Below, piece by piece: positions 1 to 4,379 of a DNA stretch of 15,944 nt. Within the stretch, counting starts at the first letter, position 1; each line of letters begins with the position of its first letter. A program made the translations under genes and the position numbers. Origin of the DNA: a virus (taxonomy: Duplodnaviria > Heunggongvirae > Uroviricota > Caudoviricetes); IMG/VR virus record IMGVR_UViG_2713897073_000008. One strand, given 5' to 3'. The notes under the pieces were generated by a model that was not told where the DNA came from, did not search any database, and was given only the letters and a program-made list of their open reading frames with translations.

Positions 1-267
1 TTACTCTGCAGGTGAAGTCGGCCACTCAATATCAGGTGCGGTTGATGTATCAACACGGTTCAGCAACACCCGATACTTCTTCCAGGCTTCCAGCAACGAG
101 TTTTCTTCCTCCGTTGCGATCTCCAGATCTACAGCATCCTGAAGTGGCGCAATATGCTCACTGAATTCCTGGATGTAGAACTGTGTGGTGACGGTCTTCC
201 AGCCATTCGGCTCCTGCTGTATCGAAGCATACCAGGCTATTTCAATATCGCTATGCTGCGGCAGCAT
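1..267 (-). CDS. tfa: Tail fiber assembly protein (Tfa), short 88 aa form retaining the conserved C-terminal domain
   Basis: C-terminal ~45 aa ([48 protein letters not shown]) match the conserved C-terminus of lambda-type Tfa as I recall it. The protein is about half the usual Tfa length, so the N-terminal part is replaced or truncated. TAA stop at 1-3. Confidence 0.65.
20..71. repeat. 52-bp conserved core of the tfa 3' end, direct-repeat copy 1 (2 mismatches to 1069..1120)
   Basis: ggccactcaatatcaggtgcGgttgatgtaTcaacacggttcagcaacaccc here versus the same string with A and C at the two capitalised positions at 1069-1120. Flanking sequence is related but more diverged. Confidence 0.8.
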
Positions 268-323
268 TTAACCCCTTGTAATTCATCGCCACAATTGATT
301 TAATTCACAAATAAAACTATAAC

Positions 324-992
324 ATGGTGAAATTAATGAAAAAAAACACAGATGATGGGGCTAAAATTTACACACCACTTACCCTAAAGCTTTATGACTG
401 GTGGGTTTTGGGAGTATCAAATCGGCTTGCATGGGGATGTCCTACAAAGGAACACCTTCTTCCACACTTTCTGGAACATTTAGGTAACAACCATCTGGAT
501 ATTGGTGTTGGAACTGGGTTTTACCTTACTCACGTACCTGAGAGTAGTCTGATATCTTTAATGGATTTGAACGAAGCTAGCCTGAACGCGGCATCGACAA
601 GGGCTGGGGAATCAAAAATTAAACATAAAATTAGCCATGATGTTTTTGAACCTTATCCCGCGGCATTACATGGTCAATTTGATTCCATTTCCATGTTTTA
701 CCTTCTTCACTGCCTGCCTGGAAATATATCTACAAAAAGCTGTGTAATACGCAATGCGGCGCAGGCCTTAACTGACGATGGAACTCTATACGGAGCCACA
801 ATTCTTGGTGACGGCGTTGTGCACAATAGCTTCGGTCAAAAACTGATGCGCATTTACAATCAAAAAGGCATCTTTTCAAACACAAAAGATTCCGAAGAAG
901 GCTTAACACATATACTCTCAGAGCATTTCGAGAATGTTAAAACCAAGATTAAAGGTACTGTAGTAATGTTTTCCGCTTCAGGGAAAAAATAG
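324..992 (+). CDS. Class I SAM-dependent methyltransferase (222 aa); alternative start at 336 has the better SD
   Basis: Glycine-rich motif I (HLDIGVGTGFYL) typical of Rossmann-fold SAM methyltransferases. Visibly AT-rich gene on the opposite strand to the flanking tfa sequences. TGGTGA 5 nt upstream of ATG 336. Confidence 0.6.
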   Translation: MVKLMKKNTDDGAKIYTPLTLKLYDWWVLGVSNRLAWGCPTKEHLLPHFLEHLGNNHLDIGVGTGFYLTHVPESSLISLMDLNEASLNAASTRAGESKIKHKISHDVFEPYPAALHGQFDSISMFYLLHCLPGNISTKSCVIRNAAQALTDDGTLYGATILGDGVVHNSFGQKLMRIYNQKGIFSNTKDSEEGLTHILSEHFENVKTKIKGTVVMFSASGKK

Positions 993-1046
993 CATCCAGC
1001 CGCAGCACGTTCTTGCGCACGACGTGCTGCGGCATAATCTCAATGA

Positions 1047-1163
1047 TTACTCCCTGACAGGGTTCGTAGGCCACTCAATATCAGGTGCAGTTGATGTACC
1101 AACACGGTTCAGCAACACCCTGCATGCCTTCCATGCCGCCAGCAATGATGTTTCCTCCTTCGT
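1047..1163 (-). pseudogene. tfa 3' fragment (about 38 codons of Tfa C-terminus, no start codon, in-frame stop immediately upstream)
   Basis: Minus-strand translation gives [39 protein letters not shown], homologous to the C-terminus of the 1..267 Tfa; homology ends abruptly at about 1163, preceded by TGA in frame. Confidence 0.6.
1069..1120. repeat. 52-bp conserved core of the tfa 3' end, direct-repeat copy 2
   Basis: See copy 1 at 20..71; same orientation, 50/52 identical by eye. Confidence 0.8.
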
Positions 1164-1439
1164 TGCATATACTGCTCACCTTTTTCACCCACGATTAACC
1201 AACAGCCAGATTCGCAGGCACGCCCCACCACGGCATATTCATACGCTTGCCATGTCCGAACATTTCAATCCAGCGATATTATGCCTGGGGTGTTCAAGCG
1301 CAATGAAGTACGTATTGTATCTTCGCGATTTTTTATAGGCTAATTGACGCGCAATTCTGAGCGGGGAGCGCACAATCAAACAGCACAGAATGGATCGCTG
1401 ATATTTATCCTTTTGTCGGTTTATCAAACAACAAGAGAG

Positions 1440-2654
1440 TCAATAGCGGATTGTCCCTACATCCATTTCTGGCGAATCCACTAACCAGAAATTATCTGGC
1501 TTTACAGCCAGAATGATCCAGGCAGTGTTTGTTGTTGATGACCAGGAAGGCAGCACATCGTATGCCGGGTCATCGCAAGAATCACGATAACCGTACTCAT
1601 TAAAAAGTGGAGCCATTGCTGCCACAAGATTCACCGCATTCAGCTCATTACCCAGCTTGCGCTCAAAAAGTGCCACACCTGCCGTTCCTTCCACCCACAC
1701 GCCACGGCTGTGACCACTATAACCATAATCAGGGTGGTACGGTGTGTAACCCGTGGTTTCCCTCGTACCAAATAAAAAACGCCCCATATATTTTCGGCAC
1801 TTAGCCGCTTTCTCAGCATCAATATTGGCAACAAACAATCCGCCCCAGGAAGACTGATCCAGCGCCGCTGCGTTGTCATAGTGGGTTGAATGAACCCCCT
1901 GTCGAAATCGGCCTTCATCTTCCACCCACAGACCTCTGATGATGCTCTTTGCCAGCCTGTCAGCCCGCTCACTGAAACCGTCAAATCCCAGCCGTCCCAT
2001 CAGTTCAAACAAAAACCAGATATCAACGTTATGCTCCAGTGCGCACCATTCGGCGACAAAAGTTTCATCAAAATTGCCGTCCACATAACGCCCCTGCCCC
2101 CCTTTATACAGGCCTTCACGCAGGTCGCCTGGTGTGCTCACCAGAAAAGTATCCAGCCAGGCAATGCCTGCCAATAGCTTTTCTCTGACCCGCGCAGTCT
2201 GAGTACCGTCCGGATACTTCTCCAGATAGAAAGCAAGAGCATAATAAACCCATGCCGCATTGCCCAAGCGGTAATAGGTACGCGGTGACATGGCAGACAG
2301 CCTGTTAACAAAAAACTTTACTCCACCGTTTTCATCAACAAGCGCACACAAGCCCGCAACGTATCTTTCTACAGCCTCATGTCGCTGAACCATCAACGCC
2401 AGTGCTGCCAGCGCCTGGTCATACGTGTAACACCGATCTTTCATCACCCTGATCACTTCGGGGTCTGCGTCCTCCGGCATCCAGTAGCTACGAATGAGCA
2501 GTGGAAACTCCAGCGTTGTGATCCACGCATTATCCTCAATCCGAATAAGACGAAACTGTTTTGCTCCCGTCCAGCAACGTCTGAAATAGAAAGTTCCGTC
2601 ACTATTCAAATTAGCGTCGCCGTTAAAATACTCTCCGGTTGTATAAGCATACAT
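1440..2654 (-). CDS. Hypothetical protein (404 aa), function unknown; may be a frameshifted continuation of the upstream portal-like ORF
   Basis: Long uninterrupted ORF with ordinary-looking codon usage and several antisense shadow ORFs. Its 5' end overlaps the 3' end of the portal-like ORF by about 49 bp in another frame. No motif I can name with confidence. Confidence 0.45.
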   Translation of the reverse strand: MYAYTTGEYFNGDANLNSDGTFYFRRCWTGAKQFRLIRIEDNAWITTLEFPLLIRSYWMPEDADPEVIRVMKDRCYTYDQALAALALMVQRHEAVERYVAGLCALVDENGGVKFFVNRLSAMSPRTYYRLGNAAWVYYALAFYLEKYPDGTQTARVREKLLAGIAWLDTFLVSTPGDLREGLYKGGQGRYVDGNFDETFVAEWCALEHNVDIWFLFELMGRLGFDGFSERADRLAKSIIRGLWVEDEGRFRQGVHSTHYDNAAALDQSSWGGLFVANIDAEKAAKCRKYMGRFLFGTRETTGYTPYHPDYGYSGHSRGVWVEGTAGVALFERKLGNELNAVNLVAAMAPLFNEYGYRDSCDDPAYDVLPSWSSTTNTAWIILAVKPDNFWLVDSPEMDVGTIRY

Positions 2655-3235
2655 ATCGACTTTATACTTTTCAGGTTCAGCCTGTTGCTCTCATCACTGG
2701 TCATGGGAATAAAGTCCGGCTCGAGCGCCTCCAGCCAGAAATGAACACCGGCAGAAGGCGTCAGGCTGTTTATGCGCCCGGAAACCATCTGGGCAAACAC
2801 CTCACCATCGCGCAGCCAGGTACGCAGCATCAGACGTTCCAGCATCGGACGGGTAAACTGCCCGGTGACCTCCGGACTGACAGACCATTCACTCCATCGG
2901 GTGCGTATCTCCGCTGCCAGATCACGGGCAATGGCCCCATTGCGTAATACCGGATGTGGCTCGACAATAATCCCGTTTTTCCCCACCACCCGTTCTTCCA
3001 GCTTGTCAAATACACCAATGACCAGATCGTGGTTGTTATCAAGGTAACGGGCCTGCTCACGTAACGACACGGCCCCGTACTGGCTTAACTGATCGGCAGT
3101 TCGGTTCTCCCGTCGGGCTTTGTGTGTCCGCGTCGTTTTTACGGCCTCATAAGCCTGGATCACCGCACGGGAACGCAGCCTTGCCGCTTTCCATCCTGGT
3201 GAAAAAACGCCAATCACATCATCAAGAATTGCCAT
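2606..3235 (-). CDS. Phage portal protein-like, N-terminal region only (209 aa); apparently truncated or frameshifted
   Basis: Arg-rich N-terminus followed by SLREQARYLDNNHDLVIGVFDKLEERVVGKNGI, resembling the conserved N-terminal motif of lambda-family portal proteins as I recall it. The ORF is far too short for a portal (~500+ aa). Start overlaps the end of the upstream ORF, as is typical of phage head genes. Confidence 0.4.
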   Translation of the reverse strand: MAILDDVIGVFSPGWKAARLRSRAVIQAYEAVKTTRTHKARRENRTADQLSQYGAVSLREQARYLDNNHDLVIGVFDKLEERVVGKNGIIVEPHPVLRNGAIARDLAAEIRTRWSEWSVSPEVTGQFTRPMLERLMLRTWLRDGEVFAQMVSGRINSLTPSAGVHFWLEALEPDFIPMTSDESNRLNLKSIKSICMLIQPESILTATLI

Positions 3236-3557
3236 CAGAACCTCGCCAGCCGGTAATCGAGTTATCAGAACTGTTAATTTTTATGGTATACCGCGCCTCT
3301 GAACAGGGGCGCGTTTCTGGCAACAGCTCGTCCCCTTCACATAACCCGGCAGCAACATCCAGGAAGACCTGTCTGATGCTCCTTCTGGCTGCTGCCTCAT
3401 AAAACTCCAGCGCTGCACCTTCAACACGGTCCAGCGAGATGTCCAGGTCAAAAATTTCACCGTCAAAGCGTTTTTTGTCCCGTAACGCTAAAGTTACCGT
3501 AACTTTATTCTCAAAATTGCGGATCCCTTTCACAATCAGTTCATAGTTTTGAGTCAT
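3222..3557 (-). CDS. Hypothetical phage protein (111 aa), immediately downstream of holin and overlapping the portal-like ORF start
   Basis: ATG at 3557 sits 4 nt after the holin stop with GGAGAG about 10 nt upstream. It occupies the position where endolysin or terminase/head-completion genes would be expected but has no lysozyme-like motif. Confidence 0.5.
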   Translation of the reverse strand: MTQNYELIVKGIRNFENKVTVTLALRDKKRFDGEIFDLDISLDRVEGAALEFYEAAARRSIRQVFLDVAAGLCEGDELLPETRPCSEARYTIKINSSDNSITGWRGSDGNS

Positions 3558-3561
3558 TGAA

Positions 3562-3777
3562 TTACTCTCCCCGTGCAGCCTTACGCTTGTCTTCTCTGAT
3601 TTTGAAGTACAGATTTGTCAGATAAGTCAGGAAGCCCAGAACCAGACTCCCCAGTACACCAATCGCAGCCCACTGTGACGGACTGACCTGATCAAGCCAC
3701 TGTAAAAACCAGTAGCCAGCACTGCCTGCGGAGGTGCCATAGGCAATGCCCGTTGAAATTTTGTCCATGGATTTCAT
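3562..3777 (-). CDS. Pinholin, phage 21 S21 family (71 aa; dual-start motif M1-K-S-M4)
   Basis: [71 protein letters not shown]: two hydrophobic segments (first Gly/Ala/Ser-rich, SAR-like), charged C-terminus, Met1/Met4 dual start as in S21-71/S21-68. Closely matches my recollection of the S21 pinholin. Confidence 0.8.
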
Positions 3778-4069: not shown

Positions 4070-4144
<75 letters not shown>

Positions 4145-4147
4145 ATA

Positions 4148-4223
<76 letters not shown>

Positions 4224-4225
4224 AC

Positions 4226-4302
4226 TGGACCGCCACCGGGGACTCGAACCTCGCACACTCAACTTAAAGAGTTGACGCTCTTTCCTGATGAGCTAGTGGC
4301 GG
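4226..4302 (-). tRNA. Atypical tRNA-like gene; canonical fold gives anticodon UUU (Lys) with non-canonical C33 (a register shift would give UCU, Arg)
   Basis: Reverse complement CCGCCAC-UA-GCUC-AUCAGGAAA-GAGC-G-UCAAC-UCUUUAA-GUUGA-GUGUG-CGAGG-UUCGAGU-CCCCG-GUGGCGG-U-CCA: 7-bp acceptor stem (C1-G72), 4-bp D-stem with GG in D-loop, 5-bp anticodon stem, T-stem with one A/C mismatch, CCA encoded. Only 2 nt and 1 nt from the neighbouring tRNAs. Confidence 0.55.
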
Positions 4303-4303
4303 T

Positions 4304-4379
4304 TGGTGGCCCTTGCTGGATTTGAACCAGCGACCTGGCGATTATGAGTCGCTCGCTCTCACCACTGAGCTAAAGGGCC
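4304..4379 (-). tRNA. tRNA with anticodon CAU, most like tRNA-Ile2 (lysidine-modified, AUA-decoding; ileX/ileZ type) rather than elongator Met
   Basis: Reverse complement GGCCCUUUAGCUCAGUGGUGAGAGCGAGCGACUCAUAAUCGCCAGGUCGCUGGUUCAAAUCCAGCAAGGGCCACCA; very similar to E. coli ileX as I recall it. Anticodon loop CUCAUAA. Confidence 0.8.

Follow-up and report, generated by a model that had tools for sequence, protein, structure and literature searches.

How did a gene for a SAM-dependent methyltransferase come to lie between two 3′ ends of tfa genes, and what could its product be doing there? The question is raised by the left end of a 15,944-nt stretch of viral DNA (the window, meaning the whole stretch analyzed). 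In all likelihood, this end of the window carries a decayed version of tfa–ybcY–tfaX, a standard cargo module in Escherichia coli lambdoid prophages, and the two tfa ends are scars. The locus is an ordinary example of phage mosaicism; the repeat in it is real and marks the presence or absence of the cargo. Coordinates of the features are collected in Table 1.

Table 1. Features of the methyltransferase cassette and of the adjoining tail-fiber region (positions in the window)
Feature	Position	Strand	Basis or remark
tfaX-like chimeric ORF, 88 aa	1–267	−	Pfam Caudo_TAP, phrog_2341, phrog_3893
Direct repeat copy A (tfa 3′ end)	17–117	−	52-nt core 20–71; repeat search, alignment
Non-Tfa cassette part (x)	175–323		5′ end of chimeric ORF (175–267) and AT-rich divergent promoter spacer (268–323)
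ybcY-type class I SAM-dependent methyltransferase, 222-aa ORF	324–992	+	Pfam, phrog_2132, AF2 model
13-bp GC-rich hairpin	999–1033		Separates copy B from the methyltransferase gene convergent with it; fold energy
Direct repeat copy B, start-less tfa 3′ fragment	1047–1166	−	Translation, alignment
C-terminal 404 aa of side tail fiber (context, outside the cassette)	1440–2654	−	phrog_13714 tail fiber protein, E 1.8e-249
Portal-gene fragment, fused upstream to the side tail fiber	2606–3235		Phage_portal_2 match

A repeat search of the window returned a direct repeat of 101 nt with 83% identity (17–117 and 1066–1166). The 52-nt core (20–71 and 1069–1120) differs by two mismatches and occurs twice in the 15.9-kb window; a comparable match was obtained in 0 of 200 dinucleotide-preserving shuffles, none being expected by chance. 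Both copies are minus-strand tfa 3′ ends, and the methyltransferase gene between them is read from the plus strand. The initial annotation had described an AT-rich plus-strand gene flanked by direct, diverged copies of the tfa 3′ end, and this description holds in both parts: the GC content is 40.8% in the methyltransferase gene, 50% in the fiber gene, 49–53% in the two tfa pieces and 27.9% in the spacer (268–335). The lambda tfa gene matches both copies at 88%, and in relatives the repeat grows to 227 nt at 88–91% identity. Tfa is composed of a variable N-terminal fiber-binding domain and a conserved C-terminal trimerization domain (PMC9608196, summarizing work on phage Mu Tfa). The tfa 3′ end is similar at the DNA level because it encodes the conserved trimerization domain.

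The upstream copy had also been described as a start-less fragment. This is correct for copy B, which is upstream in the sense of minus-strand transcription: it comprises 39 Tfa-frame codons and a stop, aligned in frame with Tfa (full length about 190 aa), has no start codon and is preceded by an in-frame stop just upstream. The joint 1166|1167 upstream of it leads into a tail-fiber module without a full tfa gene, and is common to phages ev243, 2G7b and PhiR49_1 and to many prophages. The description does not fit copy A, which has an ATG followed by about 30 non-Tfa codons. Homology of copy A with the full-length tfa genes of relatives extends as far as position 174. Codons 31–88 of the tfaX-like ORF correspond to the conserved Tfa C-terminal domain, and codons 1–30 are of the phrog_3893 type. 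Pfam Caudo_TAP matches the ORF at residues 31–87 only (profile positions 75–131 of 131, E 3.5e-26), that is, over the C-terminal (trimerization) domain and not over the N-terminal fiber-binding domain; for comparison, the full-length Tfa of PhiR26_1 (194 aa) covers profile positions 1–130. The family phrog_2341 covers the ORF over its full length (E 2e-59), and phrog_3893 covers residues 3–37; a full-length phrog_3893 protein of 79 aa is found in Klebsiella phage Kp4882-3. By annotation, the K-12 counterpart of the ORF is tfaX. Judged from these alignments, TfaX is chimeric, combining an N-terminus of the phrog_3893 family with the C-terminal domain of Tfa.

Such a chimera could be a working protein instead of a scar, which might modulate or poison the fiber assembly of resident or superinfecting phages, the methyltransferase being merely its divergent neighbor. 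This reading is improbable. TfaX does belong to a recognized family (phrog_2341), its ORF is intact (86–101 aa) in 66 of 83 loci, and pN/pS is about 0.36 over the non-Tfa N-terminal part (31 codons). A predicted tfaX promoter is listed in a SELEX study (PMC3946193), and the Tfa C-terminal domain mediates oligomerization (PMC9608196). However, about one fifth of the loci, including that of the isolated phage 2G7b, carry truncated or frameshifted versions of 7–68 aa, and the N-terminal part covers 30 codons of what is elsewhere a 79-aa protein. The Tfa part is wholly missing in phage Ayreon (internal deletion, with part x kept beside a methyltransferase remnant and without the copy-A repeat), and RefSeq labels the ORF of the window an incomplete pseudogene.

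The reading of both tfa ends as scars of a cargo module can be set beside the known relatives of the locus. By sequence comparison, the unit is the already known tfaD–ybcY–tfaX module (b0561–b0563) of the E. coli K-12 cryptic prophage DLP12, annotated in K-12 in the order tfaD–ybcY–tfaX–appY–ompT. Order and orientation of the three elements are shared with DLP12, in which the methyltransferase DNA is about 98% identical and the tfaX-like ORF and the repeat are present; the K-12 locus (L003) aligns with window positions 21–1166 at 95%. The DLP12 copy of ybcY is annotated as a pseudogene, and the tfaD ORF there has 187 aa, whereas here the methyltransferase is intact and the tfaD counterpart is cut to 39 codons and joined to another fiber module. 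As for location, the prophage of the closest complete genomes lies beside potB and not at the DLP12 site. The arrangement is not a local oddity: it is an annotated DLP12 module, and of 5426 complete E. coli genomes 3831 (about 71%) carry the methyltransferase gene at 95% identity or more, some of them in up to four places. The ybcY gene is among the commonest cargo genes of E. coli prophages; K-12, the most-studied strain, has a pseudogene only.

The isolated lambdoid phages PhiR26_1, ev243 and 2G7b (Nesevirus) are 95–97% identical to window positions 43–1166/1229. The gene order in these phages is as here: J–lom–stf–(tfa or small ORFs)–methyltransferase (opposite strand)–tfaX-like ORF–cargo–int, where the cargo between the tfaX-like ORF and int consists of an alpha/beta hydrolase and ompT. 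The genomes of these phages are complete and have more cargo in the b region, whereas the window represents a defective remnant that contains a portal::tail-fiber deletion fusion; RefSeq marks both the side tail fiber and the portal fragment as incomplete.

Morons are extra genes between conserved genes, with their own promoter and stop, an atypical base composition, and presence or absence among relatives. For lambdoid phages the concept is reportedly due to Hendrix and colleagues, who compared HK97 and HK022. The methyltransferase gene, which had been proposed to be a moron, fits this definition: it is present or absent at one position in close relatives, its low GC content is unlike that of the flanks, and it lies on the strand opposite to the tail genes; a published RpoD-bound promoter and a strong hairpin are candidates for a promoter and stop of its own. 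A genomic SELEX study with RpoD (K-12, in vitro; PMC3946193) lists the hexamers TTGATT/TATAAC of the ybcY/tfaX spacer as the ybcY promoter and places an H-NS site in the same spacer. The same element, TTGATT-17-TATAAC, is read in the spacer of the window at 295–323, and the −10 hexamer of the SELEX-listed promoter abuts the first ATG. Consensus scanning of positions 1–1500 detected no sigma-70 promoter and no terminator of the canonical type. The hairpin (−27.7/−28.7 kcal/mol, z −5.7/−4.2) is likely a transcription stop without the canonical T-tract. It is part of the 227-nt repeat in relatives, and in many loci a further copy lies left of tfaX. A sigma-70 promoter of its own in the H-NS-bound, AT-rich spacer, together with the 3′ hairpin, would allow transcription of the gene in the prophage independently of the late operon. 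The morons of lambdoid phages share with ybcY the extra gene, the atypical composition and the presence/absence pattern. Unlike them, ybcY is bracketed by a duplicated piece of a neighboring gene, which provides a homologous route for loss or transfer.

The gene is not a fixed component of this prophage family, and its polymorphism is associated with the repeat; a gene conserved in all relatives without such polymorphism would have spoken against the initial annotation. The predicted empty allele is carried as one 577-nt piece by 20 genomes, against 816 genomes with the occupied allele (one flank type); one empty allele is found at the potB site. Empty alleles carry a single hybrid repeat, composed of the left part of copy A and the right part of copy B, whose SNP pattern switches within the identical core, and they are 3–6% diverged from the occupied reference. 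With the full right flank of the window itself, no genome covered at least 80% of the empty-allele query (one reached the breakpoint at 1229), and with the PhiR26_1 flank a search of isolated phages yielded no empty allele. The suggested comparison with related prophage tail-fiber regions gave the same picture: mosaic breakpoints of 85 related loci cluster within the two repeats, at 19–21, 43, 1120 and 1166/7, and the cassette core (43–1032) adjoins at least five different right-hand neighbors.

The hybrid SNP pattern is equally compatible with a deletion from one repeat to the other and with an insertion through a single crossover. In the latter case, of the Campbell type, a circular or concatemeric donor carrying a tfa 3′ end and the methyltransferase would have entered a recipient tfa 3′ end, creating the direct repeat, and the empty alleles would be ancestral. 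Such an event also predicts the hybrid repeat of the empty alleles, and is in keeping with the variety of right-hand neighbors. It is likewise in keeping with a locus (L039) where the cassette lies in a myovirus-like invertible fiber region between other direct repeats (297 nt, 97% identical), although an N is located exactly at one junction of this locus and misassembly is possible. However, copy A is joined to non-Tfa DNA at 174|175, and a purely homologous insertion cannot make such a joint; the rarity of the empty alleles and their divergence from the occupied reference also speak against their being ancestral. Campbell-type insertion is a candidate, though an unlikely one.

The same joints bear on the original proposal that the methyltransferase was captured by recombination between conserved tfa 3′ ends. 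This proposal applies to later loss, spread and re-assortment of the cassette. It does not account for its origin by a simple crossover of two tfa ends, because the founding joints (174|175, 1166|1167 and the hairpin edge at about 1032) are non-homologous and copy A is fused to an unrelated phrog_3893-type N-terminus. According to the preferred reading, that of a decayed tfa–ybcY–tfaX module, a methyltransferase gene of a host family would have been placed, in opposite orientation, downstream of the side-tail-fiber and tfa genes. Both tfa 3′ ends would be scars left by the exchange of tail-fiber modules, and the order of events given here is a proposed one. Copy A could have arisen by a non-homologous joint between the 5′ end of a neighboring gene of the phrog_3893 type and the tfa gene of another phage, of which the last ~58 codons and the terminator were retained. 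Copy B would be the remnant of the tfa gene that once preceded the methyltransferase, left after a fiber module lacking Tfa was joined at 1166|1167. Homologous recombination across the two scars could then remove the cassette or transfer it to other tail-fiber modules.

Conserved 3′ segments of tfa and tail-fiber genes were reportedly described as recombination linkers between the fibers of lambda, P2, Mu and P1 by Haggard-Ljungquist et al. in 1992 and by Sandmeier in 1994. The conserved tfa 3′ end of those systems is also the segment shared here, with mosaic breakpoints inside it. In those systems the segment occurs once at a module boundary, whereas here it occurs twice, in direct orientation, around cargo. 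The locus is a clean, countable case in which non-homologous joints make scars and the scars then act as homology for loss and transfer. Current concepts are left unchanged by it; the practical value is that strains with intact alleles and natural empty alleles have been identified for a functional test.

The tfa ends could also be considered as remains of an invertible tail-fiber segment (Mu G, P1 C or e14 P type) that trapped the methyltransferase. A Pin/Gin-like serine invertase (Resolvase and HTH_7) is located between the methyltransferase and tfa in some relatives (L021), and in others (L039) an invertase of this kind adjoins the cassette. However, in an invertible segment the tfa genes would converge and the crossover sites would be inverted, while the repeats here are direct; the sole inverted repeat in positions 1–1500 is 14 nt long with an 86% match, and no invertase was found in the window by tblastn. 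With the repeats in direct orientation and no invertase in the window, this origin was rejected as extremely improbable.

The real start of the methyltransferase gene is probably the ATG at 336, giving 218 aa, since the homologues are 218 aa long and align from M5. Its classification as a methyltransferase is borne out by four Pfam families above threshold: Methyltransf_12 (37.6 bits, cut-off 30), Methyltransf_23 (28.8, cut-off 27), Methyltransf_25 (27.6, cut-off 27) and Methyltransf_11 (24.6, cut-off 21.2). The ORF also matches phrog_2132. SAM motif I reads LDIGVGTG; D59-x-G61-x-G63-T-G65 and D81, the acidic residue ending strand 2, are invariant in 31 homologues. The AF2 model (pLDDT 90) has the Rossmann-like alpha/beta fold with a seven-stranded sheet characteristic of class I enzymes, preceded by an N-terminal helix. 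Fold neighbors are small-molecule and lipid methyltransferases, the best Foldseek match being phosphatidylethanolamine N-methyltransferase. YbcY shares the fold and a similar size with 8ys9 (bacterial PE N-methyltransferase), 7ec0 (juvenile hormone acid methyltransferase), UbiG and Coq5, but merely 12–21% identity. Membership in the phospholipid N-methyltransferase PmtA, RquA or CpaM families was rejected, as the NCBIfam scores remained below the whole-protein cut-offs (15.7 vs 390, 16.9 vs 175 and 17.4 vs 180 bits, respectively).

As modeled, YbcY most likely methylates a small molecule or lipid rather than DNA. The catalytic motifs of DNA methyltransferases ((D/N/S)PP(Y/F/W), or PCQ with ENV) and a target-recognition domain were not found in the protein. 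That it could be a phage enzyme modifying DNA (or RNA) for protection against restriction is highly improbable. The comparison of methylomes that had been proposed for this gene is unlikely to inform, because of the missing DNA methyltransferase motif and the small-molecule and lipid enzymes among the fold neighbors. PADLOC defense models gave just a weak mad2 match (E 0.004), which was rejected as evidence of a defense role.

Relatives of YbcY at 50–75% identity are encoded in Citrobacter, Enterobacter, Salmonella, Yersinia, Erwinia, Pseudomonas and others, where they stand alone among chromosomal genes with no Tfa within 4 kb. From this distribution the methyltransferase appears to be a host-family gene. 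Neighbor clustering of 72 non-Escherichia loci revealed no universal gene partner, only synteny at the genus level, and gave no pathway hint. A conserved methyltransferase–hydrolase pair was considered and rejected: the three alpha/beta hydrolases encoded near the gene (in the phages, Erwinia and Enterobacter) are from different families (BLASTP E 0.82).

No functional study of ybcY, tfaX or tfaD was found in the literature. It is conceivable, albeit a long shot, that YbcY is a lysogenic-conversion enzyme methylating a host membrane lipid or small molecule, that the tfa ends make the unit a homology-guided cassette traveling with fiber swapping, and that TfaX serves as a decoy trimerization domain. 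If true, any of these would supply a role for a gene that about 70% of E. coli strains carry. The gene itself is under clear purifying selection, with 84 of the 85 copies in related loci intact and a pN/pS of 0.12.

The methyltransferase gene of the window lies between two minus-strand tfa 3' ends, copy A and copy B, which form a direct repeat of 101 nt with 83% identity (17–117 and 1066–1166, repeat search). Within the 15.9-kb window, its 52-nt core is found at exactly two places, which differ by two mismatches, and none of 200 shuffled sequences gave any match. Copy A is the 3' part of the tfaX-like ORF, where the Pfam Caudo_TAP match is limited to residues 31–87 (profile positions 75–131 of 131). 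Copy B comprises 39 Tfa-frame codons and a stop, preceded by an in-frame stop and having no start codon. The GC content is 40.8% in the methyltransferase ORF, 49–53% in the tfa pieces and 27.9% in the spacer ahead of the methyltransferase. By the repeat, Pfam and GC data, the initial annotation (an AT-rich methyltransferase gene between tfa 3'-end repeats sharing a 52-nt core) is correct throughout, and its start-less tfa fragment is borne out for copy B.

Features of window positions 1–1500 and points where homology to the window ends in 85 related loci
Feature	Position	Strand	Basis, location or count
tfaX-like ORF, 88 aa	1–267	minus	sequence reading
Methyltransferase ORF, 222 aa	324–992	plus	sequence reading, Pfam
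GC-rich hairpin, 13 bp	999–1033		downstream of methyltransferase gene
tfa-like fragment (copy B)	1047–1166	minus	translation
Side-tail-fibre gene, 3' part	from 1440	minus	
Breakpoint, left side	19–21		46 loci
Breakpoint, left side	43		20 loci
Breakpoint, right side	1032		20 loci
Breakpoint, right side	1120		10 loci
Breakpoint, right side	1166/1167		28 loci
Breakpoint, right side	1178		4 loci
Breakpoint, right side	1229		3 loci
Breakpoint, right side	1252–1260		12 loci

The methyltransferase gene and the two tfa pieces make up a module that is already known and not new: tfaD-ybcY-tfaX, which K-12 annotation places in the cryptic E. coli prophage DLP12. The K-12 module has ybcY as a pseudogene and is followed by appY and ompT. 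The isolated lambdoid phages PhiR26_1, ev243 and 2G7b share the arrangement of the window (J, lom, stf, tfa or small ORFs, methyltransferase on the opposite strand, tfaX-like ORF, more cargo, int). The depositors of PhiR26_1 labelled the gene 'putative uncharacterized protein YbcY'. Of 5426 complete E. coli genomes, 3831 carry the gene at ≥95% identity, with a maximum of four sites in one genome; the gene defines phrog_2132. Several enterotoxigenic-type E. coli chromosomes carry nucleotides 1–3255 of the window unchanged; there potB lies 231 bp from position 1, and the annotation marks each of the two tfa pieces as incomplete.

The methyltransferase ORF exceeds the Pfam thresholds for Methyltransf_12, _23, _25 and _11. 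ATG 336 is its likely start, since homologues have 218 aa and align from M5. The gene and the tail genes are encoded on opposite strands. In K-12, the ybcY/tfaX spacer is among the in vitro binding sites of RpoD holoenzyme, and a predicted ybcY promoter (TTGATT-17-TATAAC) is listed alongside an H-NS site (PMC3946193); its hexamers are also found at window 295–323. Consensus scans of window 1–1500 found no canonical promoter or terminator, so the promoter assignment depends on that study. The downstream hairpin has a folding energy of -28 kcal/mol (z about -5). In 84 of 85 related loci the gene is intact, and its 33 distinct alleles give a pooled pN/pS of 0.12, showing that selection maintains it. 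By the features tested, the locus is a phage moron.

Relatives at 50–75% identity occur in Citrobacter, Enterobacter, Klebsiella, Salmonella, Yersinia, Erwinia, Pantoea and Proteus, as well as in Pasteurellaceae, Pseudomonas, Xanthomonadales and Oxalobacteraceae. Tfa-like sequence was found within 4 kb at none of 72 such loci; those with gene calls are surrounded by ordinary chromosomal genes and have no neighbour in common. This distribution suggests that the phage gene was captured from a gene family of the hosts. Two short contigs in GTDB records of a Bacillus sp. MAG and a Planococcaceae MAG carry the E. coli methyltransferase at 99–100% identity with Tfa adjoining; these Firmicutes copies most likely come from E. 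coli DNA contaminating the bins.

The AlphaFold2 model of the methyltransferase is confident (pLDDT 90.2). The top Foldseek match in the PDB is a bacterial phosphatidylethanolamine N-methyltransferase, followed by juvenile hormone acid methyltransferase, phosphoethanolamine methyltransferases and natural-product methyltransferases; PDB sequence searches gave only weak matches, to juvenile hormone acid methyltransferase and UbiG. Scores against NCBIfam CpaM, RquA and PmtA are far under the cut-offs, and the enzyme stands outside every characterised family tested. A motif search of the protein found no DNA methyltransferase catalytic motif, and the enzyme is judged not to be a DNA methyltransferase. 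Taken together, these results predict that the enzyme is probably a small-molecule or lipid methyltransferase, and the methylome sequencing suggested by the initial annotation is unlikely to help. A search of one literature library found no functional report for ybcY. What remains of interest is how a prophage gene this common and under selection functions; its occupied and empty alleles provide natural test material.

Repeat-associated polymorphism, the absence of which was to count against capture at the repeats, is present: empty alleles carry a single repeat. An empty allele predicted from the related locus L035 (a single repeat between 150 nt of left and 200 nt of right unique flank) was found as one 577-nt piece at 94–97% identity in 20 genomes, and the occupied junction of this type in 816. 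One empty allele, L096 (Rha, DUF4376 remnant, tfa, stf, lom, J; methyltransferase absent), has left-copy SNPs up to an identical core and right-copy SNPs beyond it in a three-way alignment, this core being the 52-nt one. The prophage of strain T309.Ta3, adjoining potB with the same 231-bp flank as the window, has one tfa 3' fragment followed by the sequence after window 1166, and no methyltransferase. The hybrid SNP pattern fits deletion and single-crossover insertion alike; the rarity of empty alleles leads us to lean towards deletion.

In many related loci the flanking repeat is 227 nt long (88–91% identity) and spans the hairpin, the tfa stop and the ~58 codons preceding that stop; the window repeat is a version trimmed at both sides. 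Clustering of the breakpoints shows a constant core (~43–1032) and much reshuffling inside the two tfa ends. On its right side the core is followed by a full tfa or, in the window and relatives, by a truncated tfa that runs into a fibre module lacking Tfa. In other variants, inserts separate the methyltransferase from tfa: a 547-aa LRR and NEL E3-ligase type III effector (L010 5985–7628), a Pin-like serine invertase with an 88-aa ORF (L021 1546–2721) or a DUF892/DUF892/Mn-catalase block (L036 1790–3742), the last resembling host yciF-yciE plus catalase. In L039 (4264–6180; IMG/VR UViG_2695420708_000013) the cassette (window 282–1120 equivalent) lies within a myovirus-like invertible fibre region, next to a Gin/Pin-like invertase, and is flanked by another direct repeat (297 nt, 97% identity; invertase 5' end and gix-like site); an N exactly at one junction makes misassembly possible. 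An invertible segment is ruled out for the window, where the repeats are direct and invertase is absent.

The proposed capture by recombination between tfa ends holds for the role of these ends in the polymorphism and fails for the founding of the arrangement, as non-homologous joints bound the tfa homology. TfaX matches phrog_3893 over its first ~36 residues. Klebsiella phages have a full-length member of this family (79 aa), encoded ahead of a UmuD-like gene; in Klebsiella phage Kp4882-3 (L180 3504–4071) it overlaps the start of that gene, hinting at a link of the family to SOS or translesion functions. In phage Ayreon, window 181–297 is joined directly to 957–1178, so that the TfaX N-terminal piece adjoins a 36-nt methyltransferase remnant, the copy-A repeat being absent. 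In the simplest history, the ancestor would have had the order stf, tfa, hairpin, methyltransferase (antisense), phrog_3893 gene. One illegitimate crossover could then have fused the phrog_3893 gene at codon ~30 with the tfa of another phage at codon ~136, producing both TfaX and the direct repeat. Later, stf and most of tfa would have given way to a Tfa-less fibre module joined at 1166|1167; ev243, 2G7b and many prophages have this joint too. Tfa has a conserved C-terminal trimerisation domain and a variable N-terminal domain that binds the fibre (PMC9608196); because the repeat encodes the conserved domain, the two scars are still similar enough for recombination.

The window prophage is defective, since an N-terminal portal-gene fragment (2606–3235) runs straight into the last 404 codons of the side-tail-fibre gene (1440–2654; joint near 2680); nearly all head and tail genes are therefore deleted. 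Homology to the window ends at 2680 in four relatives (L007, L008, L049, L051) and continues in L006 and L009. Downstream of the fibre gene, a small ORF (1167–1440) that has 97 aa in ev243 and T309.Ta3 appears disrupted in the window, which is ~56 nt shorter around 1221–1252 than ev243, L049 and L051. At ~3247–3255 the window is without ~5.4 kb found in all eight best-listed complete genomes, annotated in strain 99-3165 as terminase large subunit, DUF1441, lysis genes and lysozyme. These genomes match the window at 100% in two pieces spanning ~21.3 kb, whose 9-nt overlap in the query suggests a short-repeat deletion. Just past the holin and YdfR-family genes (3222–3777) lie four tandem minus-strand tRNA genes (4070–4379): Gly-TCC, Thr-TGT, Lys-TTT and one with a CAT anticodon, assigned to Met by ARAGORN but to Ile in RefSeq for the 99-3165 equivalent.
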